Shown piece by piece: positions 1,321 through 11,635 of a DNA stretch of 11,635 bases (position 1 is the first letter of the stretch; every line of letters starts with the position of its first letter). The translations under genes were made by a program, and so were the position numbers. The stretch lies in the IMG/VR virus record IMGVR_UViG_2660238190_000006, one strand, 5' to 3'. Origin of the DNA: a virus (Duplodnaviria; Heunggongvirae; Uroviricota; Caudoviricetes). Under the pieces are notes generated by a model. The model was given only the letters and a program-made list of their open reading frames with translations. It was not told the origin of the DNA and did not search any database.

Positions 1321-1602
1321 GAGACGAAAAAGTGTACGGATTTATAAGTAGCTGATTTTTAATGTGTTACTGGTTTTTTATACACTAGCGAATCACTCTT
1401 TAAATAGCGAGAAAAAAGGCATGAAACAATATTTTATGCCTTTGTATTAACATGAATTTAAATGATTTTATCCTGATTATTCCTGTTTCTGTAAACCATA
1501 CGACCTCAACATTTGCCAACTCTGAATCATCCTGACACAATCAGACACATCCCAACGCAATAGAACACGAAATAACTCTTTAAGAAACGAAAGGGGGCAA
1601 TA

Positions 1603-1791
1603 GTGTTAAGCACTGATCGGTTTATACGTGAAAAAGAATGCGAAAAGCTAACAGGCCTTAGCCGCTCATGCCGCTACCGCCTGGAAAAGGCCGGACAATT
1701 CCCATCACGTCGTAAACTTGGCGGTCGTTCCGTTGGCTGGTCTTTATCCGAGGTTCTGGCCTGGAAGGATAGCTGCAAGGCAGTTCATTAA
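1603..1791 (+). CDS. alpA: AlpA-family (Xis/MerR-like HTH) transcriptional regulator / excisionase-like protein
   Basis: 62-aa ORF with GTG start preceded by AAAGGGGG. Sequence ...KECEKLTGLSRSCRYRLEKAGQFPSRRKLGGRSVGWSLSEVLAWK... matches the AlpA pattern (tG.sr...Y.l...G.FP...lg.rsvgW...ev..W). Typical position immediately downstream of int. Confidence 0.8.
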   Translation: MLSTDRFIREKECEKLTGLSRSCRYRLEKAGQFPSRRKLGGRSVGWSLSEVLAWKDSCKAVH

Positions 1792-1937
1792 TCACGCTGG
1801 CGGCACACAGCCGCCACACATCAATCATCTGAACACAGAGCTATAACCATGAAGATTGAATATACGCCAGAACGTGGGCGGGGATTCGTTCGCCCTGGTG
1901 AGACTGGAAAACCACAAAATTGGGGTTTTTCAGGCAT

Positions 1938-1970
1938 AAAAAAAGCGGCCCCGAAATGGAGCCGCCTTTC
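1938..1970 (-). terminator. Rho-independent terminator between convergent alpA and the minus-strand genes (strongest in minus orientation)
   Basis: Seen: A7-GCGGCC-loop-GCCGCC-TTTC on + strand, so on the minus strand a GC stem is followed by a T7 run. Lies about 95 bp downstream of the minus-strand ORF stop at 2061. Confidence 0.5.
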
Positions 1971-2060
1971 TGAACAGATAACACGCTGCGCCGTTTGTGT
2001 GTGTGATCCCAAACATAAGCACGGGGATGATAGCCGCTATCAGGCTGGTGGGCAATGCAA

Positions 2061-2249
2061 TCAGTCTGGTTCAGTTCGTTGCCATACCTGCAATGAGCGC
2101 TTTTCCCTGTACTCTTTAAGGAATTGCTCAAGGGCAAAAGCACATGGCGCGAATCTTTCTGATTCATGCTCTATCTTTCTGCGCCGTCTTTTCCGTGCCG
2201 GTGATAATGTTTTGGTCAATTCTTTATCGGTCATTGTGTTGTCCTGCAT
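2061..2249 (-). CDS. Small basic hypothetical protein (62 aa; alternative start at 2234 with AGGA RBS)
   Basis: ORF with Arg/Lys-rich stretch ARKRRRRKIEHE. In the same reading frame as the upstream RHH ORF, separated only by a TAA and 14 sense codons. Followed by the 1938-1970 terminator. No family recognised. Confidence 0.4.
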   Translation of the reverse strand: MQDNTMTDKELTKTLSPARKRRRRKIEHESERFAPCAFALEQFLKEYREKRSLQVWQRTEPD

Positions 2250-2291
2250 AGCAATGCGCCGTAATACCTCACACCACGGCGCTGATAGTTT

Positions 2292-2483
2292 TTATCCTTT
2301 GGGTTCTATACCGCGCCGCTTTAGTTCAGTACGCCCCAACTCTTTAAGCCAGTTGGCTAGGCTTATGCCGTCGCTCTGTGCTTCTTTATCGAATTGCTCT
2401 TTTAGCTCTGGAGAAATTCGCATTCTGAATTGTGGGGATTGCCCGTCCCCTTTAGGGCTTTTATCGCGTTTGATTGTTGACAA
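2292..2483 (-). CDS. Ribbon-helix-helix (CopG/Arc-like) DNA-binding protein, antitoxin-like
   Basis: 63-aa ORF with TTG start preceded by GGTGA. Segment FRMRISPELKEQFDKEAQSDGISLANWLKELG fits a beta-strand/helix/helix RHH fold pattern. Call is inferred from pattern only. Confidence 0.5.
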   Translation of the reverse strand: MSTIKRDKSPKGDGQSPQFRMRISPELKEQFDKEAQSDGISLANWLKELGRTELKRRGIEPKG

Positions 2484-2617
2484 GTGGTCACCTATTGAAT
2501 TAGCCTTTCTATTGTTAGGTGGTCACCTTAACACAAGAGCACTTAAAAAAGCAAAGCCCCGCAAGTGTCATTACCACTCGCAGGGCTTCTAACCAACAAC
2601 GTAAACTAGGAGCCGTT

Positions 2618-2815
2618 ATGGTTGCTGTAAATCATATACCACACCTTGTACACACACAAACGGCCTTTGTGTGGCGTTTTCTGGCACTGAGTGCCGGAGA
2701 ATCTCAAATCATCCACGTAACCGCCTGGACGGAACGCGAAGCGCGTAGCCGTTGCCCGTCCGGTTGTGTTGCTGTATTCGCCGCCCGTATTCGTCAGGAG
2801 GTGCGCCATGATTAA
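2618..2815 (+). CDS. Icd-like host cell division inhibitor family small protein (tentative)
   Basis: 65-aa ORF from ATG 2618 with strong RBS AGGAG 5 nt upstream. Sequence MVAVNHIPHLVHTQTAFVWRFLALSAGESQIIHVTAWTEREARSRCPSGCVAVFAARIRQEV resembles, from memory, the Icd-like proteins annotated in P4-like prophages. The 2519 start of the tracked ORF was rejected. Confidence 0.55.
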   Translation: MVAVNHIPHLVHTQTAFVWRFLALSAGESQIIHVTAWTEREARSRCPSGCVAVFAARIRQEVRHD

Positions 2816-3020
2816 TCTGTCACTTACTGACCTTAACCGCATTCAGTTTCGTGAGAAATTCACAGGGCAGCTACTGGTCAATGTGGATAAAGGTCGCGTG
2901 GTGTGTAATTACCACTTACCAGATGAAGCAATTGTCGCCACAAGGGAATCATTACAGGAAATCACAAAACGTGCCGGAATGATTAACACGAATATTCAGG
3001 GGATGCTTTATGCACAATAA
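2808..3020 (+). CDS. Hypothetical protein (70 aa)
   Basis: ATG 2808 overlaps the upstream stop (8-nt overlap) with RBS AGGAGG 7 nt upstream; translationally coupled chain. No family recognised. Confidence 0.6.
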   Translation: MINLSLTDLNRIQFREKFTGQLLVNVDKGRVVCNYHLPDEAIVATRESLQEITKRAGMINTNIQGMLYAQ

Positions 3021-3474
3021 AACCACACCGGACGCAGCCGCCGAAGCCATCAAAACGCTGATGCACGCGCTGATTGATATTTCTGTTATCGCGGACAGGG
3101 CACATAAGCACGCCACCAGCGAAACAGAATATGCCGGTGCTTTCGTTCCTCACTCACTGGCTGTCATGCAATTTAGTGCTGATACGGCGCTGAATGAGGC
3201 CAAAGCTATCCTGATTGCTGATTGTGAAAATGGGGGGGTTATGCGTGATGATCGTTTTAATTCCCTGAAACAGGAATTTACCGGCGTTCCTGATGATGCG
3301 GCTGATGCGCTTTCGTCAATGCCAGAACTTATTAGAGCGGCTTTTTTCTTACTTTCCACGAGAGAATATAAATCAACGGGGCTTGATGTACTGAATATCG
3401 CCGCCGATTATGCGGAATATGTGGCAGAGGCGCGTTATAGAAGAAAATTTCCTGAGGATGTAAGCCATGCGTGA
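3010..3474 (+). CDS. Hypothetical protein (154 aa)
   Basis: ATG overlaps the upstream gene end; RBS CAGGGGA upstream. Alanine-rich, predicted helical. No family recognised. Confidence 0.65.
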   Translation: MHNKTTPDAAAEAIKTLMHALIDISVIADRAHKHATSETEYAGAFVPHSLAVMQFSADTALNEAKAILIADCENGGVMRDDRFNSLKQEFTGVPDDAADALSSMPELIRAAFFLLSTREYKSTGLDVLNIAADYAEYVAEARYRRKFPEDVSHA

Positions 3475-3700
3475 TATTTACCACCAAACAATAGACCGCG
3501 CATTTCTTGCACTTTCTCACAGTGAAAACATGCTGGAAATATTGCGCATATGGCTTGAAACACTTGGCGACAATGAACGCGACAAACAAAAATCAAGAAT
3601 TGCCACGGCATTAATAACGCTTCTTGAGCCTGTAATAATGGAACTGCAAGAAATAGATCTATTGCACGACAGATATAAAGAACAGCACACCGGAGAATAA
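3467..3700 (+). CDS. Hypothetical protein (77 aa)
   Basis: ATG 3467 overlaps the upstream stop (ATGCGTGA); RBS GAGGA 8 nt upstream. No family recognised. Confidence 0.6.
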   Translation: MRDIYHQTIDRAFLALSHSENMLEILRIWLETLGDNERDKQKSRIATALITLLEPVIMELQEIDLLHDRYKEQHTGE

Positions 3701-3705
3701 AAATA

Positions 3706-4005
3706 ATGAAACTTAAATATTCTGGCTTAACTGCCAGTGGCAACACTCACCCTAAATTTACGCGCGGTGATATTTACCGCGACCAGTACGGCGGCACGGT
3801 AATGATTAAGGGCGTGGAAGAACGGCGCGTAACCTACCGCCGTGAAGGTTACGAATATGATTGCGTGATGCCTGTTTATCAGTTCCGGCGTGATTTTTCT
3901 CTGGTACAGACCGCGCCGCATAACGTGCCCACCAGCAACGCCAGGGCACGGGCAAACATCCAGAAGCTGAAAACCATGGTTAACGGATTCAGGGGCAAGA
4001 AATGA
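3706..4005 (+). CDS. Hypothetical protein (99 aa)
   Basis: RBS GGAGA about 10 nt upstream; stop overlaps the replicase start (ATGA). No family recognised. Confidence 0.6.
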   Translation: MKLKYSGLTASGNTHPKFTRGDIYRDQYGGTVMIKGVEERRVTYRREGYEYDCVMPVYQFRRDFSLVQTAPHNVPTSNARARANIQKLKTMVNGFRGKK

Positions 4006-5402
4006 AAAGCGCACCGAACTTAAAAAAACAGCCTTACGACAAGATGACCGAAGTCATCATTTTTGCGGGTAGTGATGCGTGGGCACATGCGAAACAGTGG
4101 CAGGAACAGGACGGGCGACTGGCTGGCGATAATGTGCCTCCCATTGTGCTGGCTGATGATCAACTGGATGAACTGGCAGACCTGAGAATCATCGACGAGG
4201 GGCGCTATTGTGTCCGGCTGTACAAGGCAGGCCACATCAGGCCATCAAATATTAATGCCATTGCGCACAAGCTGGCGGCGGCGGGCGTAACTGATGCGAA
4301 TTATTACCCCGAAGGGATGCACAGCCATATGCGGGAGAACTGGCGCGAATACCTGGAACGGGTGCGCGGGAAAGAGCCGGCGGAAGAAAAAAACCACCAG
4401 CGAAAAACCACGCTACCGATGAGCGTTGGATCTACCGGATACGACACGCAACTGGATTACGTGGTTAAGGGGATTATTCCGGCGGTATCGCTATGCAGCA
4501 TATACGGGGCTAGCGGGTCCTATAAATCATTCCTTGCCGGATCGTGGGCGTGCCATGTTGCCACTGGTCGCCAGTGGGGAGGCCGCAGGGTTGCACATGG
4601 TGCGGTTCTCTATGTGGTTGGTGAAGGCGGTATAGGTGTTCCGCGTCGTGTAAAAGCCTGGGAGGTTGTGCACGATGAGCAGGTGAAAAATCTGTATCTG
4701 GTAAACCGCCCCATCTTTCCGGCTGCCCCGCTTGATGTTGATGAAATGGTTATCGCTGCCCGTCAGGTGGAGCGGGAAACGGGTAAACCTGTACGCATGA
4801 TTATTCTGGATACGCTGGCGCGTTGCTTTGGTGGGAATGATGAAAATGATTCCCGTGATATGGGGGCGTTTATCCGTGGTTGTGACGAACTGAAACGACG
4901 CACAGGGGCCACGGTGCTGGTGGTTCACCATTCCGGCAAGGATGAGACGAAAGGCGCGCGCGGTTCCAGTGCATTTCGTGCTTCGCTGGATGCTGAATAC
5001 CGGATACGCAGGGAGGACGCAGGAAGCGAAGCGCTGGTTATCTCATGCACCAAAATGAAGGACGCGGAGGAACTCAAAGAAGCCGCATATGACTTACGCG
5101 TGGTGGAGCTTTTTACCGACGCTGACGGTGAATTAATCACGTCGCTGGTGGTGGTGGATGATCCGCGCCCTCCTGTTGAACTGGAGCGCATCGAGGAGGC
5201 AGGGAACAAGACGGAAAACCATACCGCGCTATGGGGGTGCATCCGTTCACGCACACAGAACGGCGACAAGTGCACGATCCAGATGTTACGTGATGACATG
5301 AAAAAGCTGGGGTATGAAATGAAAAACTTCCGGCGCTGGCTGTACAAGCTGGAAAAAGATGGGGTTATTCGTATCGATGGGGATGATGTAGCGCCGCTAT
5401 AA
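4002..5402 (+). CDS. Replication protein: RecA/DnaB-like P-loop ATPase (RepA/AAA_25-type helicase) with an N-terminal domain of unknown function
   Basis: 466-aa ORF. Walker A GASGSYKS (in IYGASGSYKSFLAG), Walker B-like hydrophobic-D stretch MIILDTLARCFGG, and HHSGKD (sensor-like) typical of RepA/DnaB-family replicative ATPases found in satellite pri-rep modules. Iteron cluster lies immediately downstream. Confidence 0.8.
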   Translation: MKSAPNLKKQPYDKMTEVIIFAGSDAWAHAKQWQEQDGRLAGDNVPPIVLADDQLDELADLRIIDEGRYCVRLYKAGHIRPSNINAIAHKLAAAGVTDANYYPEGMHSHMRENWREYLERVRGKEPAEEKNHQRKTTLPMSVGSTGYDTQLDYVVKGIIPAVSLCSIYGASGSYKSFLAGSWACHVATGRQWGGRRVAHGAVLYVVGEGGIGVPRRVKAWEVVHDEQVKNLYLVNRPIFPAAPLDVDEMVIAARQVERETGKPVRMIILDTLARCFGGNDENDSRDMGAFIRGCDELKRRTGATVLVVHHSGKDETKGARGSSAFRASLDAEYRIRREDAGSEALVISCTKMKDAEELKEAAYDLRVVELFTDADGELITSLVVVDDPRPPVELERIEEAGNKTENHTALWGCIRSRTQNGDKCTIQMLRDDMKKLGYEMKNFRRWLYKLEKDGVIRIDGDDVAPL

Positions 5403-6165: not shown

Positions 6166-6576
6166 ATGACAGCACAAATTGCAGCTTACGGGCGGCTGGT
6201 GGACGACCCGCAGGTAAAACAGACCAGCAAGGGTACACCGATGACGCTGGCGCGTATGGCGGTATCGCTGCCATGCAGCCAGGCACAGGATGGACAGGCG
6301 ACGTTATGGCTATCGGTCATCGCATTTGGTAAGCAGGCCGACTTCCTGGCTAAACATCAAAAAGGCGACGTTGCCAGCGTATCCGGCACGATGCAGGTCA
6401 GCCAGTGGACCGGACAGAACGGGGAAACGCGGCAGGGTTATCAGGTTATTGCAGACAGCGTAATCAGTGCCCGTGCGGCACGTCCTGGTGGGAGCCGACG
6501 CAAGACCACAGGCACACAGGGTAATCAGCCACCAGCGGGAGGCGATGACCCTTACGGTGATGATATTCCGTTCTGA
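6166..6576 (+). CDS. ssb: Single-stranded DNA-binding protein (SSB-like)
   Basis: 136-aa ORF. OB-fold-like N-terminal region, Gly/Gln/Pro-rich linker and C-terminal acidic tip DDPYGDDIPF, matching the conserved DDDIPF tail of bacterial SSB. RBS GAGGTGG upstream. Confidence 0.75.
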   Translation: MTAQIAAYGRLVDDPQVKQTSKGTPMTLARMAVSLPCSQAQDGQATLWLSVIAFGKQADFLAKHQKGDVASVSGTMQVSQWTGQNGETRQGYQVIADSVISARAARPGGSRRKTTGTQGNQPPAGGDDPYGDDIPF

Positions 6577-6588
6577 GGGGTGGGGACG

Positions 6589-6861
6589 ATGGTACATGAC
6601 CGCATAGCGGAAGAACTGGAGGCGAAAGGCTTTTACCGGAGAGCGTCGGCGCGATGGGGTGAAGTCATGCAACTGGTGGAGACAGACAAGGAACGGCATC
6701 ACATCACGATGCGACGGCTGGAATGTTCCAGGAAGGCACAGAGGCCACCGGAGCCGCCGGATAATTACGGAGACCTGAAAAAGGCGGTCGATCGCACTTA
6801 TGCCGAAATGGGTATGGATGGTGCTGGTGATGAAATATGGCGAAATTACCAGGACAGATAA
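6589..6861 (+). CDS. PerC-family-like transcriptional activator (tentative)
   Basis: About 90-aa ORF. AEELEAKGFYRRASARWGEVM resembles the PerC/Pch N-terminal signature (LE..G.WRRAA..W) as remembered. ATG 6589 with GAGGGG RBS is preferred over GTG 6580. Followed by a terminator. Confidence 0.5.
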   Translation: MVHDRIAEELEAKGFYRRASARWGEVMQLVETDKERHHITMRRLECSRKAQRPPEPPDNYGDLKKAVDRTYAEMGMDGAGDEIWRNYQDR

Positions 6862-6933: not shown

Positions 6934-7111
6934 CGCTGACCGGATCGGCATATTTTACCCGAACTGAATCATGATTATTCTCGCCCGTGGTGCCAGGACG
7001 CTGGGGCCACTTTCCCGCCTGTTAATGTGCCCGCCAATATTCATTACCAGGCGGGAAAACGATCGGTGCGATTGCTGATTTCCTTATGAAAAACGGTTGA
7101 GTGTTTGCCGC

Positions 7112-7148
7112 GTCCTGGAGTTCCTTACTTAACTTCAGGACTTTTTTT
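7112..7148 (+). terminator. Strong intrinsic terminator/attenuator hairpin ending in T7, directly abutting the capsid start codon and sequestering its RBS
   Basis: Seen: 11-bp stem GTCCTGGAGTT (7112-7122) pairing with AACTTCAGGAC (7131-7141), one G-U pair, 8-nt loop, then TTTTTTT (7142-7148), then ATG at 7149. The AGGA RBS (7137-7140) is inside the 3' arm. Confidence 0.6.
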
Positions 7149-8306
7149 ATGCCGAGAATAATCGAATTACGCCAGCAGAAAACCGCCATTAAAAATCAGA
7201 TGCGCGACATGCTGGAGAACGCGGAAAAAGAAAACCGCAGCCTTAACGATGCTGAGGGCGCAAAATTTGACGAATTACGCGCTAAAGCTGAATCCCTCGA
7301 TAAAGACATCTCCCGCCTTGAGGCCGTTGCTGACGAAGAGCGCAGTAAACCAGGCAAAAACAGCCAGACCACTGACCCCGCCGAACTACGTCACTACATT
7401 CTGACAGGTGAAACCCGCGCATTGAGTACAGGCGTTCCCGCTGATGGTGGTTATACCGTTATCCCCGAACTGAACACCGAAATCATGCGAATGCTGACGG
7501 ATGAATCCACCATGCGCCGCATCTGTACCGTGAAGAAAATCAGCAGCAACGAGTTTAAGCAGCTTGTTTCCGCTGGCGGTGCGACCGTTAACCACGGTGA
7601 AGAGGGTAAGGCACGCGAACAGACCAGCACCCCGCAGATTAACGAGGTGAGCATTAAGCTGTATCCGGTCTATGCGTACCCGCGCACCACGCAGGAAATC
7701 GTGGATTTTTCCGATGTGGACATCCTTTCATGGCTGACGGGCGAGATTGGCGACACCTTCACGGAAACCGAAGAAAGCGATCTGGTTGTGGGCGACGGTG
7801 ACAAAAAAGCAAAAGGCTTTTTATCCGTACCCCGTGCAGAGAAGAACGACAAAGAGCGTGATTTTGGTACGTTGCAGGTAATTAAACCTTCCGAATCTCT
7901 GGCGTGGACATCTGCGGACCCGCTGATCGACCTGAAATTTGCATTACGTAAAAAATACCGCAAAAACGCGGTCTGGGTGGTTAACTCCACGACGGCGGCA
8001 AAACTCCAGAAGGTGAAGAACGCGAACGGTGATTACATCTGGCGTGACCGTTTACAGGCGGGTGATCCTGATACGTTGCTGGGCCTTCCGGTCGAATATC
8101 TGGAGTTTATGCCGGATAACGTTATTGCCCTGGGTGACTTCAAACGCGGTTACTACATTGTTGATCACGAAACAGGTGTTCGCACCAGACCGGACAACCT
8201 CACAGAGCCGGGCTTCATCAAAATTTTCGCGCAGAAATATTTAGGCGGTGGCGTGGTGGATTCGAACGCGATCAAGATTCTGGAACTGCCACAGGACGAC
8301 GATTAA
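7149..8306 (+). CDS. Major capsid protein, HK97 fold, with N-terminal coiled-coil scaffold (delta-like) domain
   Basis: N-terminal coiled coil RIIELRQQKTAIKNQMRDMLENAEKENRSLNDAEGAKFDELRAKAESLDKDISRLEAV matches the HK97-family MCP delta-domain pattern. GDGDKKAKGFLS fits the conserved G.G...p.Gil region. Start 7149 chosen over GTG 7101; start is uncertain. Confidence 0.85.
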   Translation: MPRIIELRQQKTAIKNQMRDMLENAEKENRSLNDAEGAKFDELRAKAESLDKDISRLEAVADEERSKPGKNSQTTDPAELRHYILTGETRALSTGVPADGGYTVIPELNTEIMRMLTDESTMRRICTVKKISSNEFKQLVSAGGATVNHGEEGKAREQTSTPQINEVSIKLYPVYAYPRTTQEIVDFSDVDILSWLTGEIGDTFTETEESDLVVGDGDKKAKGFLSVPRAEKNDKERDFGTLQVIKPSESLAWTSADPLIDLKFALRKKYRKNAVWVVNSTTAAKLQKVKNANGDYIWRDRLQAGDPDTLLGLPVEYLEFMPDNVIALGDFKRGYYIVDHETGVRTRPDNLTEPGFIKIFAQKYLGGGVVDSNAIKILELPQDDD

Positions 8307-8316
8307 CAGCATACAG

Positions 8317-8345
8317 AAGGGGCTTAAAAGCCCCTTTAGTGTTTT
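8317..8345 (+). terminator. Hairpin (partial terminator/attenuator) between capsid and protease genes
   Basis: Seen: AAGGGGC-loop-GCCCCTT followed by T-rich TAGTGTTTTA. Could tune capsid versus protease expression (inference). Confidence 0.4.
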
Positions 8346-8918
8346 ATGGGTGAAAAAATTATGAAGAGTATGGAAATCCGGTCATCGGAAATCACCACCA
8401 GCGGAGCCGGTACGCTGACGGGCTACATTGTTCGCTGGGATAAGCTTTCAGAACTGTTATGGGGTGAGTTTTACGAAAAATTCCAGCGGGGGGCGTTTAC
8501 TGAATGGCTTGCGGCGGGTAATGACGTTCGCGGCCTGTATGAGCATGACCACAGCATGTTACTGGGGCGCACCCGTTCCGGCACGCTGAAACTGGAAGAG
8601 GACGAAACAGGGTTACGCTTTGAACTGACCCCACCGGATACCAGTACAGGGCGCGACGTTATCGAACTGGTTAAACGAGGTGATATATCCGGCATGAGCT
8701 TTGGCTTTCGTTCCCGTAAGGATGTATGGGATACCACAACAGATCCATGCGTGCGCACCGTGCTGGTGGCGGAACTGTACGAAATTACCGTTACATCCGT
8801 ACCGGCTTACCCTGATTCCGACGTGGAGCTGGCCCGCCGTTCCCTGTATGAGCAGCACCCCGAAAAAATGCCGCGTGCGGATAATCGCCGCTGGTGGGCG
8901 GATTTAGCGGGGGTGTGA
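8346..8918 (+). CDS. Prohead maturation protease, HK97 family (S78/U35-like)
   Basis: Motifs GYIVRWDKLSELLWGEFYEKFQRGAF, LYEHDHSMLLGRT, GLRFELTPPDTSTGRDVIELVKRGDISGMSFGF and YEITVTSVPAYPDS match the HK97 prohead protease family pattern. Start may instead be ATG 8361 or 8370. Confidence 0.85.
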   Translation: MGEKIMKSMEIRSSEITTSGAGTLTGYIVRWDKLSELLWGEFYEKFQRGAFTEWLAAGNDVRGLYEHDHSMLLGRTRSGTLKLEEDETGLRFELTPPDTSTGRDVIELVKRGDISGMSFGFRSRKDVWDTTTDPCVRTVLVAELYEITVTSVPAYPDSDVELARRSLYEQHPEKMPRADNRRWWADLAGV

Positions 8919-10438
8919 TATGTGGCCTTTCCAGGGTGTGCCCGCACGTAAAAGGGCCGATGCGTGGCAGACCCATTGAGCTGGAGCCGTGGCAGCAGTT
9001 CGCCTTTGCGTGCATCCTCGGCTTTAAGGTTAAGGCCACCGGACGGCGCAAATACACGAGCGCCTTTATCGAAGTGCCGCGCAAAAATGCGAAATCCACG
9101 ACCGCCGCGATTCTGGCTAACTGGTTTCTGATTATGGAGAACGGTCAGCAGGATATCTACACCGCAGCGGTGAGCCGTGACCAGGCGCGGATCGTCTTTG
9201 ATGATGCGCGTCAGATGTGCCTTTTATCCCGACCGTTACGCAGGCGGGTGAATATTCAGGCGCATAAGGTGATGCACCCGAAAAGCAACAGCCTGTTAAA
9301 GCCGCTGGCAGCAAAAGCGGCAACCATCGAGGGAACAAACCCCAGCCTTTCCATCGTGGACGAATACCACTTGCACCCCGATAACGGCGTTTATTCCGCG
9401 CTTGAGCTGGGGATGGGCGCACGCCCCGAAGGGCTGTTATTTGCTATTACCACATCAGGCAGTAACGTCGTTTCAGCCTGTAAGCAGCACTATGATTATT
9501 GCTGCCAGATCCTGGACGGCGAAGAGGTCAACGATTCAATTTTTGTACTGATTTACGAACTGGACGACGAAAACGAGGTTGATGATCCGGCGATGTGGAT
9601 AAAGGCGAACCCTAATATTGATGTTTCCGTGGATCGTGAAAAACTGGCCTCAACCATCCAGAAAGCGCGGGGTATTCCGTCGCAGTGGGTGGAGATGATG
9701 ACAAAGCGATTTAATATCTGGTGCCAGGGGGCTACCCCGTGGATGGGTAACGGCGCATGGGCTGAGTGTGCCGGAACGTTCACGGAGGAAGATTTACACG
9801 GCCAGGAGTGTTACGCGGGGCTGGACTTATCATCAACCAGCGATATTTCCAGCGTGTGCTATGCCTTTCCGGTCGGTAAAACCATTATGCTGGTTTCCCG
9901 TCACTATCTGCCGGAATTTCAGCTACAGAACCCCGCCAATAAAAACCGCGCCATCTATCGTCAGTGGGCTAAAGCAGGCTGGATACGCACAACGCCTGGC
10001 GACTGCATTGATTACGACCGGATCAGAGATGACATCATGCAGGACGCGGAGAAATTTAATATCAGGCTGGTGGGCTTTGATACGTGGAACGCCACGCATC
10101 TCAGAACGCAATTACAGGGGGCAGGTTTTGAGGTGGAGCCGTTCCCGCAAACCTACCTCAGATTCAGTCCGGCGGCGAAATCGTTCGAAGTTTTTGTTAA
10201 CCGCAGGGTGATTGTGCATCGTGGCGATCCGGTGTTGTCCTGGTCGATGAGTAACGTCGTGATGCAGAGTGACGCGAACGCCAATATCAAGCCGAACAAG
10301 AAAAAATCACCGAACAAGATAGACCCGAGCGTGGCGGCGCTGATGGCGTTTGGTACATTCCAGGCAGAGCATGAGGATTTTGCTTTTGATATAAGCGACA
10401 GCCACCGCCAGAAACTGGAAGAATTTAGCGGGGTGTAA
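8894..10438 (+). CDS. Terminase large subunit (Terminase_1 / COG4626-type), with a short N-terminus
   Basis: Motifs recognised: LEPWQQF; P-loop EVPRKNAKSTTAA; AAVSRDQARIVF; Walker B SIVDEYHLH; ITTSG; WIKANPNIDVSV; GLDLSSTSD; C-terminal KPNKKKSPNKIDPSVAALMAF. Start ambiguous (GTG 8894 overlapping the protease end, GTG 8936, or ATG 8960). Confidence 0.85.
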   Translation: MGGFSGGVICGLSRVCPHVKGPMRGRPIELEPWQQFAFACILGFKVKATGRRKYTSAFIEVPRKNAKSTTAAILANWFLIMENGQQDIYTAAVSRDQARIVFDDARQMCLLSRPLRRRVNIQAHKVMHPKSNSLLKPLAAKAATIEGTNPSLSIVDEYHLHPDNGVYSALELGMGARPEGLLFAITTSGSNVVSACKQHYDYCCQILDGEEVNDSIFVLIYELDDENEVDDPAMWIKANPNIDVSVDREKLASTIQKARGIPSQWVEMMTKRFNIWCQGATPWMGNGAWAECAGTFTEEDLHGQECYAGLDLSSTSDISSVCYAFPVGKTIMLVSRHYLPEFQLQNPANKNRAIYRQWAKAGWIRTTPGDCIDYDRIRDDIMQDAEKFNIRLVGFDTWNATHLRTQLQGAGFEVEPFPQTYLRFSPAAKSFEVFVNRRVIVHRGDPVLSWSMSNVVMQSDANANIKPNKKKSPNKIDPSVAALMAFGTFQAEHEDFAFDISDSHRQKLEEFSGV

Positions 10439-11470: not shown

Positions 11471-11635
11471 TCAACGTGTTATGTGAAATAAGTTATATAT
11501 AACAGCAATAAATAATGCGAGAATAAACGGCACGATGATCTCGGCGGCAAAACGGATACCGCAGAGAATAATGACCAGCATTCCCAACATAATGACGATT
11601 TTTAGGCCATTGAGCGTGATGATCGGCTTTGCCAT
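11471..11635 (-). pseudogene. tqsA: 5' fragment (54 codons) of an AI-2E-family transporter gene (TqsA/YdgG-like), apparently truncated at the island junction
   Basis: Minus-strand ORF starting at the last base of the window: [54 protein letters not shown]. The N-terminal 45 or so residues match my recollection of E. coli TqsA; the ORF then diverges and stops. It is shorter than 60 aa, so absent from the supplied track. Confidence 0.45.

Follow-up and report, generated by a model that had tools for sequence, protein, structure and literature searches.

A chain of small early genes from an Icd-like gene to the replicase, with a predicted antisense RNA over its start, in a phage-inducible chromosomal island of Escherichia coli

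Introduction

Phage-inducible chromosomal islands (PICIs) of Gram-negative bacteria are recognised by an integrase at one end followed by alpA and a primase or replicase in the same orientation, by a size of about 10-15 kb, by an attachment site of their own and by the absence of lysis and tail genes; their hallmark is AlpA-mediated induction by a helper phage, with high-frequency transfer (PMC6092414). The means by which Gram-negative PICIs remain silent and later begin to replicate are known only in part. Here we analyse a stretch of 11,635 nt from the IMG/VR virus record IMGVR_UViG_2660238190_000006 (Caudoviricetes), called the window throughout, which is an Escherichia coli PICI inserted in tqsA. 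Our subject is its chain of five small genes at 2618-4005 (O1 to O5), which opens with a gene for an Icd-like protein and runs into the replicase.

Three described islands, EcCI042 (the island of E. coli 042 at tqsA; PMC6092414), EcCICFT073 and EcCIEDL933 (O-island 51, CP-933C or Sp7 of O157:H7, with the published helper phages HK106 and HK446), are elements of the same type as the window and share its layout of int, alpA, small genes, RgdR, replicase, single-stranded DNA-binding protein (SSB) and PerC. RgdR was found in every E. coli PICI analysed in that study (PMC6092414), and one member of the group is the island of enterohaemorrhagic E. coli (EHEC) O157, with an RgdR that modulates both type III secretion and colonisation of the gut. 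The O157:H7 island at the roxA site (locus L005 in our set), roxA being the published insertion site of O-island 51 (OI-51; PMC3378721), has a control region and an O1 nearly identical to those of the window, whereas genes of 61, 63 and 80 amino acids (aa) replace O2 and O3, the O4 relative is divergent and the replicase is of the DUF927 kind rather than RepA-type. The presence of the chain in described islands, as the PICI early operon, and of RgdR within it is thus already known; the literature on these PICIs yielded no function for O1 to O4 in the satellite and no antisense RNA. Measured against the literature searched, what is new here, as leads and not as results, is the shuffling of the middle genes and a predicted antisense RNA with a variable loop.

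Precedents for such a gene arrangement and its control come from phages, satellites and plasmids. The P1 record gives icd a 4-nt overlap with ant1, describes it as "apparently required for expression of ant" and places target sites of the C4 RNA at its ribosome-binding site. P1 immI (c4 RNA-icd-ant1/ant2) thus resembles the window in having Icd as first cistron, an overlap with the next gene and an RNA regulator, predicted in the window, aimed at the ribosome-binding site; it differs in that C4 comes from upstream on the same strand and works through short target sites, whereas the window RNA is predicted to be truly cis-antisense, and in that an antirepressor follows Icd in P1 where small proteins and a replicase follow it here. 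The same record lists, upstream of repL, an RNA "antisense to 5' region of kilA" (PaskilA/P53as), so that P1 kilA-repL combines, as is predicted for the window, a short antisense RNA over the 5' end of a first cistron with a replication gene downstream. P22 arc-ant with Sar RNA and plasmid R1 CopA with tap-repA likewise place an antisense RNA bearing a terminator hairpin over the 5' end or ribosome-binding site of a toxic or leader gene, on which a downstream antirepressor or replication gene depends. The P1 kilA, P22 and R1 antisense RNAs bear no sequence relationship to the window, which has five cistrons before its replicase. P1 c4-icd-ant and kilA-repL are the closest precedents for the control that we propose.

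For the gene chain itself the satellite P4 is instructive. Its left operon, ORF137 (Ash/Icd-like)-epsilon-orf151-cnr-alpha, is, as in the window, a chain of small genes with two 8-nt overlaps leading to a primase/helicase, and the C-terminal region of ORF137 aligns with the long Icd-like forms of PICIs (BLASTP E=4e-8). No significant homologue of epsilon (Derepression family) or Cnr (DUF5375) was found by BLASTP among the small proteins of the related loci described below (E>=0.02; best for epsilon 0.02). The window differs from P4 in its replicase, which is RepA/AAA_25 and not alpha-type, and in having no sid, delta or psu late module, its late region carrying capsid, protease and large terminase instead; it does not group with the P4-like satellites. 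P4 immunity uses the CI RNA.

Results

The chain and the replicase, its distal cistron, are encoded on the plus strand:

2618-2815, plus strand: O1, 65 aa, ATG start, Shine-Dalgarno (SD) sequence AGGAG
2808-3020, plus strand: O2, 70 aa, ATG start, SD AGGAGG
3010-3474, plus strand: O3, 154 aa, ATG start, SD-like GGGGA
3467-3700, plus strand: O4, 77 aa, ATG start, SD-like GAGGA
3706-4005, plus strand: O5, 99 aa, ATG start, SD-like GGAG, weaker and farther off
4002-5402, plus strand: RepA-family helicase replicase (AAA_25), 466 aa

An earlier note, made by a model from the letters alone, had described five translationally coupled open reading frames (ORFs) with good ribosome-binding sites, forming a co-expressed early operon in a satellite, between an Icd-like gene and the replicase. 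Its coordinates and lengths (65, 70, 154, 77 and 99 aa) are exact; its title sets the Icd-like gene beside the chain, when O1 is one of the five. The overlap of start with stop that it reported is present at four of the five junctions (O1/O2 -8, O2/O3 -11 and O3/O4 -8 nt, and O5/replicase -4 nt, an ATGA) and is replaced at O4/O5 by a gap of 5 nt. A purine-rich SD-like sequence does precede every start, that of O5 being weaker and more distant. A co-expressed early operon ending in the replicase agrees with the junction geometry and with the conserved gene order, the translational coupling itself being a prediction.

All five ORFs are real genes under purifying selection. Each has a PHROG match (E from 1e-23 to 8e-92), the same five coding sequences are annotated by RefSeq in near-identical islands, and pairwise dN/dS against divergent orthologues is mostly 0.16-0.58, with a single low-divergence outlier at 0.82. 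O3 and O4 are acidic (pI about 5), and O1 and O5 basic. The replicase matches Pfam PF13481 (E=2.4e-43) and phrog_2850 over its full length and carries the RefSeq name "helicase RepA family protein".

To place the chain among its relatives, we searched E. coli genomes and IMG/VR for the leader motif, collected 131 loci that carry it and walked the ORF chain in the 102 that had enough downstream sequence. The layout is constant at its ends: an Icd-like gene comes first, then one to six small genes, then RgdR (the family of O5), then a replicase of 457-710 aa. An RgdR-family gene occurs in 102/102 loci and is the last small gene in 99 of them, and the Icd-like gene is first in most (about 85). 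According to RefSeq the replicases that follow RgdR are of four kinds (RepA helicase, DNA primase family, DUF927 and DUF5906), and an ATGA overlap joins RgdR to the replicase start in the window as well as in all the RefSeq-annotated loci that were read. Junction distances of -4 (113 cases), -8 (105), -11 (56), +5 (54) and +6 (26) dominate across the 102 loci. At least 60 length architectures are found among the same loci, from which we take the middle of the operon to be made up of about ten small families that are shuffled while the two ends stay fixed.

O1 is a true homologue of P1 Icd, as the earlier note had supposed in calling one protein Icd-like. It matches the NCBIfam model NF033153, "host cell division inhibitor Icd-like" (E=5.8e-18, 64.7 bits), P1 Icd matches the same model with 52.6 bits, and the two proteins align by BLASTP at 38% identity over 52 aa (E=5e-8). 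Like P1 Icd, O1 may control or block host division or be toxic, to judge from this homology. Against GenBank phages (tblastn), O1 had only one match, a 16.5-kb "induced prophage" record. An Icd-like protein with linked genes including a primase forms part of a prophage system of strain ECOR61, in which expression of a phage accessory gene leads to programmed cell death and transposon suppressors mapped to three genes, that for the Icd-like protein among them (Silas et al., bioRxiv 10.1101/2023.04.06.535777). The ECOR61 protein has a long N-terminal extension that O1 lacks; by analogy, this system would be the nearest case from experiment in which an Icd-like protein, together with linked genes and a primase, is toxic.

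Upstream of and within the start of O1, the opposite strand carries what would be a short antisense transcription unit:

2545-2626, minus strand: predicted cis-antisense RNA of about 80 nt, spanning the O1 SD and AUG
2589 to 2553, minus strand: terminator hairpin from a terminator scan, with its U-run at 2550 to 2545
2631-2636, minus strand: TATGAT, the -10 hexamer of a predicted promoter for the antisense RNA, within O1 codons 5-7

The terminator hairpin, of 15 bp, lies 30-65 nt upstream of the O1 start and downstream of the early promoter. The predicted transcript (about 2625 to 2545) would fold into a stem-loop 1 with CUCCU, an anti-SD sequence, in its loop, followed by the terminator (minimum free energy -35.5 kcal/mol, z=-5.2). 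Conservation of the hairpin is specific to the minus strand: every variant (41/41) is more stable as RNA of that strand than of the other (mean -24.0 versus -17.2 kcal/mol). When 29 variants are aligned, the minus-strand reading pairs in 94.1% of cells, 61 of the cells being G·U, against 79.0% and 0 G·U for the plus-strand reading of those columns. Three hairpin pairs are changed on both sides. The predicted promoter is conserved as well, in that a TA...T hexamer (TATGAT, TATAAT or TATTAT) stands at a fixed distance from the hairpin in 130/131 loci, mostly after TGn; it lies about 45 nt upstream of the hairpin on the minus strand and reads TGGTATGAT in most loci and TGGTATAAT in seven. It persists despite differences in the N-terminal peptide of O1 between leader types, and codon changes from His to Tyr or from His to Asn in O1 keep or improve it.

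The window has one leader type, and a commoner variant is carried by 97/131 loci (L004, L012, L013 and 94 others). In this variant an invariant 5-bp stem, CGAUA/UAUCG, stands just upstream of the SD and presents 11 different 7-nt loops; a compensatory CGCUA/UAGCG stem occurs in one locus, L062. The variable loop looks like the hypervariable recognition loop of an antisense RNA and its target. A type I toxin-antitoxin-like pair would consist of a gene for a small toxic protein and a cis-antisense RNA that covers its ribosome-binding site; in the loci collected here the promoter-like -10, stem-loop and terminator are conserved and strand-specific, the antisense RNA and the toxicity of O1 being predictions only. 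The first gene of the chain thus seems, from sequence conservation, to be guarded by a previously undescribed antisense RNA; a literature search that included small RNAs in CP-933C found no description of it.

Separately, loci L003, L007, L009 and L011 (at tRNA-Pro and other sites, with an "ash family" pseudogene annotation) have a different leader. There a plus-strand hairpin, CCGCCACC...GGTGGCGG, stands just upstream of the Icd-like start, and elsewhere this hairpin reads CCACCGCC...GGCGGTGG, a difference of two compensatory pairs. This suggests a second, unrelated RNA element before the same Icd-like gene.

The early promoter lies ahead of the leader, with a divergent gene beside it:

2477-2528, plus strand: early promoter region, -35 TTGACA at 2477-2482
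2477-2493 and 2512-2528: two 17-nt direct repeats with core GTGGTCACCT, from a repeat search, candidate operators
2292-2483, minus strand: divergent Arc/ribbon-helix-helix-like gene, candidate repressor (phrog_228 "Arc-like repressor", E=5e-7)

The -35 is embedded in one of the two repeats. The Arc-like gene also matches Pfam HicB at E=4.9e-4, just under the cut-off, and RefSeq places YlcI/YnfO-family genes at its position in related islands. In those islands a TTGAC(A/G) -35 is found at the same place with differing repeats (GTGGCTGACACC, ATGGTAATTACC, GTGTTCAACAC and the inverted GTGTGTTTCATG). In a comparison of the window with L001, L002, L004, L006, L008 and L013, the pair of 10-12-nt repeats differs from one island type to the next, and so, where annotated, does the YlcI/YnfO- or Arc-like gene on the opposite strand. 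This pattern suggests that E. coli PICIs may fall into several repressor/operator specificity groups.

A 247-aa plus-strand ORF at 1849-2592, a RefSeq "hypothetical protein" in related genomes, was considered as a further part of the system and rejected, having no match in Pfam, PHROGs, NCBIfam or PADLOC. Two ORFs on the minus strand, both with family matches, overlap it: the Arc-like gene at 2292-2483 and a 62-aa ORF at 2064-2249 (phrog_21027, E=1.6e-15). The 247-aa ORF is probably spurious, and the real genes there are probably a leftward two-gene operon.

O2, O3 and O4 belong to satellite-specific families without known function. O2 matches phrog_340 (E=1e-23); its family occurs in 21/102 loci at variable positions, and a longer variant of 121-127 aa occurs in 13 more. 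O3 matches phrog_2512 over its full length, phrog_5146 on residues 1-73 and phrog_24341 on residues 78-154, and is a fusion of two modules of about 75 aa, O3N (residues 1-77) and O3C (from Met78, "MRDDRF"). A HMMER scan of 1.84 billion representative proteins returned separate relatives of about 75 aa for residues 1-77 and 78-154, and locus L004 encodes O3N and O3C as individual genes on either side of an O2-like one, the O3C gene starting at the Met that corresponds to O3 residue 78. Half-length O3 relatives and other fusions also exist (O2+O3C and Icd+O3N, for example), and O3C, free or fused, precedes O4 (position -3, with O4 at -2). The AlphaFold2 (AF2) model of O3 is all-helical, with five helices (pLDDT 70), and Foldseek against the Protein Data Bank (PDB) returned nothing for it at E<2. 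O4, an acidic helical protein, matches phrog_2196 (E=4e-42); its family is present in 63/102 loci and lies directly upstream of RgdR in 62/63. A 106-aa gene at position -2 in 23 loci was not detected by the O4-family hidden Markov model and is not claimed for that family.

None of O2, O3 and O4 has a match in Pfam, NCBIfam, PADLOC or PDB, and neither O2 (in 50,697 records) nor O3 has a tblastn match in GenBank phages. For all five proteins a PDB sequence search gave nothing below E of about 0.8, and the PADLOC-DB defence models gave no match at E<=1 to the five, the replicase or the Arc-like protein. These searches did not turn the five into housekeeping satellite proteins of known function, the outcome that the earlier note had said would overturn its proposal, and left O2, O3 and O4 without a function. 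The small, shuffled repertoire that O2 to O4 represent makes them good candidates for helper or host interaction factors, and it is plausible, as that note had it, that this position holds functions of helper sensing, interference or host takeover. O2, O3N, O3C and O4 are probably interchangeable accessory proteins, mostly acidic and helical, that would bind helper or host proteins.

The earlier note had recognised no family among these proteins; O5, by contrast, belongs to DUF4222 (Pfam PF13973, E=1.6e-24, residues 16-68), the family of the published EHEC regulator RgdR (PMC3378721), whose members are basic, have about 99 aa and share a conserved core at residues 20-68. RgdR (ECs1581) is a basic 99-aa protein of O-island 51/CP-933C that activates the LEE1 promoter and type III secretion, represses motility and binds DNA non-specifically in vitro; R20 of its RGD motif is needed for activation of type III secretion (the R20C variant is inactive), and the effects on LEE1 and motility are published for ECs1581 and C1493 only (PMC3378721). 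The same study reports that deletion of OI-51 reduces sheep colonisation and that RgdR-family genes also occur in islands of LEE-negative strains (PMC3378721). O5, with 99 aa and a pI of 10.2, is identical at 80/99 residues (81%) to the O157:H7 protein of L005, which appears to be ECs1581, its computed mass of 11,703 Da and pI of 10.09 agreeing with the published values. O5 shares with ECs1581 an RGD at positions 20-22 as well as K35; in related islands the GD of this tripeptide is retained, whereas its R varies (N, H or P). In the AF2 model the O5 core forms an SH3/Tudor/KOW-like barrel, after which comes a basic C-terminal helix, and O5 may on this model be a small basic SH3/Tudor-like regulator that binds nucleic acid or RNA polymerase. 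Its core has weak matches, at about 41-45% identity, in temperate phages (GenBank, tblastn). A scan of genome contigs with the RgdR alignment yielded 2 loci only, the back-translated patterns being too strict. Comparative genomic hybridisation data for O157:H7 list ECs1576-ECs1581 as lineage-specific (PMC1890555), and a literature search found no functions for ECs1576-ECs1580.

RgdR is universal in these islands and therefore probably works for the island itself, in its programme of replication or transcription; the effects that it has on LEE (the locus of enterocyte effacement) and on motility in EHEC would then be cross-talk.

The remaining features of the window bear out the satellite setting that the earlier note had assumed:

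1-1218: tyrosine integrase (PF00589, PF13356)
1603-1791: AlpA (PF05930, E=5e-18)
between the RepA-family helicase and SSB: two small genes
6166-6576: SSB
6580-6861: PerC-family regulator (PF06069, E=3e-43)
within 7101-10438: HK97-type capsid (PF05065), then S78 prohead protease, then large terminase (TerL)
11471-11635, minus strand: tqsA N-terminus, at the right end of the window

The island runs from int at position 1 to about 11.4 kb, ending before the tqsA N-terminus, and its integrase (1-1218), AlpA (1603-1791) and replicase (4002-5402) follow in the order expected of a PICI; its size of about 11.4 kb and its site at tqsA are likewise those of a PICI. No lysis or tail families were found among the window proteins scanned, which include part of the small ORFs only. 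In E. coli 042 the early module is 99% identical in DNA and occupies the same tqsA site.

The packaging genes are less typical. In contrast to the capsid-forming PICIs of the EcCIEDL933 type, which encode a capsid, prohead protease, portal, head-tail connectors, HNH and both terminase subunits and among which the window does not belong, it has capsid, protease and TerL in an unusual order, and family scans identified no portal, small terminase (TerS), HNH or connector gene before the tqsA end. The module looks like a truncated or rearranged version of the capsid-forming one, and, being incomplete or rearranged, may leave the island unable to package itself.

DNA related to 2484-4005 is present in 1,812/5,426 complete E. 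coli genomes (about a third), in 320 of which one place covers at least 80% of that interval; at megablast level the interval has no match in 50,697 GenBank phage records.

Discussion

The account that we favour, and consider reasonably probable, makes the chain the part of the island's early operon nearest the promoter, gated by an antisense RNA and coupled through to the replicase. Transcription would start from the sigma-70 promoter whose -35 overlaps the direct-repeat operators, with the divergent Arc-like protein as its presumed repressor, and a constitutive cis-antisense RNA of about 80 nt would cover the O1 SD and AUG and oppose ribosome entry. Once O1 is translated, ribosomes would pass by way of the stop/start overlaps through O2, O3 and O4 to RgdR, from which the ATGA overlap would hand them to the RepA-type replicase, so that one gate would set the output of the whole chain. 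If this is true, a repressor/operator pair and an antisense RNA before the Icd-to-replicase chain make up a concrete control circuit, one that would explain how the island keeps a toxic first gene from leaky expression; if none of it holds, the chain is the ordinary early operon of a common satellite.

Several points weigh against this account. Three of its elements, namely the antisense RNA, repression by the Arc-like protein and the translational coupling, are predictions drawn from the sequence, and searches with sequences and structures assigned no function to O2-O4. The early promoter has a weak -10 here (TAGCCT, as read from the sequence), and published work places the control of E. coli PICIs with the activator AlpA and found no repressor (PMC6092414). 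Each cistron has an SD of its own, which makes independent initiation possible. As for the RNA, the pattern used in the locus search fixed six bases of one hairpin arm, limiting the covariation evidence there; the antisense -10 lies inside coding sequence, and part of its conservation could therefore be at the protein level; and Rfam at gathering thresholds has no match in the whole window, its E-value mode returning over 1500-4100 only sub-threshold chance matches and no C4 or IsrK-like RNA.

A wider form of the antisense-gated operon, which we put forward tentatively as a possibility, would extend it to E. coli PICIs at large: they would gate the entire early operon, replicase included, through an antisense RNA at the Icd-like start, with coupling carrying the decision down the chain. 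The invariant stem with its 11 loop versions would then give co-resident islands separate RNA "immunity" specificities, and RgdR, rather than being virulence cargo, would belong to the core factors of the satellite, with RNA polymerase or DNA as its target.

We think it unlikely that the chain is an abortive-infection or superinfection-exclusion module, in which the Icd-like protein would be the effector of death or stasis and its neighbours, with the replicase, would sense an incoming phage protein. The ECOR61 prophage system, with its Icd-like suppressor gene (bioRxiv 10.1101/2023.04.06.535777), speaks for such a module, and the mosaic of middle genes, in at least 60 architectures among 102 loci, is what an arms race would be expected to produce. 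Nonetheless, the N-terminal extension of the ECOR61 protein is absent from O1, no PADLOC model matches any of the five proteins, and universal linkage to a replicase in a fixed gene order fits a life-cycle operon. An abortive-infection role would be compatible with the antisense-gated operon.

It also seems doubtful that RgdR, perhaps together with O4 and O3C, consists of replication accessory factors that bind the origin or the replicase in the manner of P4 Cnr. P4 Cnr is a replication regulator encoded just upstream of the P4 primase gene, and the P4 left operon has the same layout of small genes, 8-nt overlaps, cnr and alpha. Such a role would explain the tight translational link to the replicase and the fixed places of these genes before it, with RgdR last in 99/102 loci and joined by ATGA, O4 at -2 in 62/63 and O3C at -3; DNA binding by RgdR, although non-specific, points the same way (PMC3378721). 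RgdR accompanies four unrelated replicase types, however, which argues against a specific protein partner, and Cnr is a DUF5375 protein and not DUF4222; the similarity between RgdR and another P4 protein, ORF151, is unproven (hhalign probability 15%).

More improbable is that the small genes are cargo ("moron") regulators that benefit the host through virulence or motility and play no part in the satellite cycle. The published activity of RgdR on LEE1, type III secretion and motility and the lower sheep colonisation after OI-51 deletion (PMC3378721) would fit cargo, as would the PerC-family regulator in the same island. Yet the genes lie inside the early operon and not at PICI accessory positions, strains that lack LEE also have islands with RgdR-family genes (PMC3378721), RgdR and Icd are found throughout the loci, each in a set position, and the operon looks repressed in the resting island.

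We give practically no weight to the idea that the five include ORFs which arose by chance in a compact stretch of DNA: the genes are short, three lack a known function and RefSeq at times annotates doubtful island ORFs such as that at 1849-2592, but strong PHROG matches for all five, dN/dS below 1 in every comparison, reading frames and junctions kept in about 100 loci and the existence of hundreds of protein clusters exclude it.

Two minor observations concern O5 and its relatives. PerC and RgdR co-occur in the island; both families have been reported to act on LEE1 in EHEC and enteropathogenic E. coli (EPEC), and both are standard components of E. coli PICIs. The N-terminus of P4 ORF151 (L135, 7440-7895), PGEIYRS...YRRKFSIL, resembles the O5/RgdR core, RGDIYRD...FRRDFSLV. 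ORF151 has no DUF4222 match, and it aligns with RgdR at 30% identity over 46-50 positions (BLASTP E=0.22; hhalign E=0.0018); a remote relationship may exist, and we leave it as an unproven lead.

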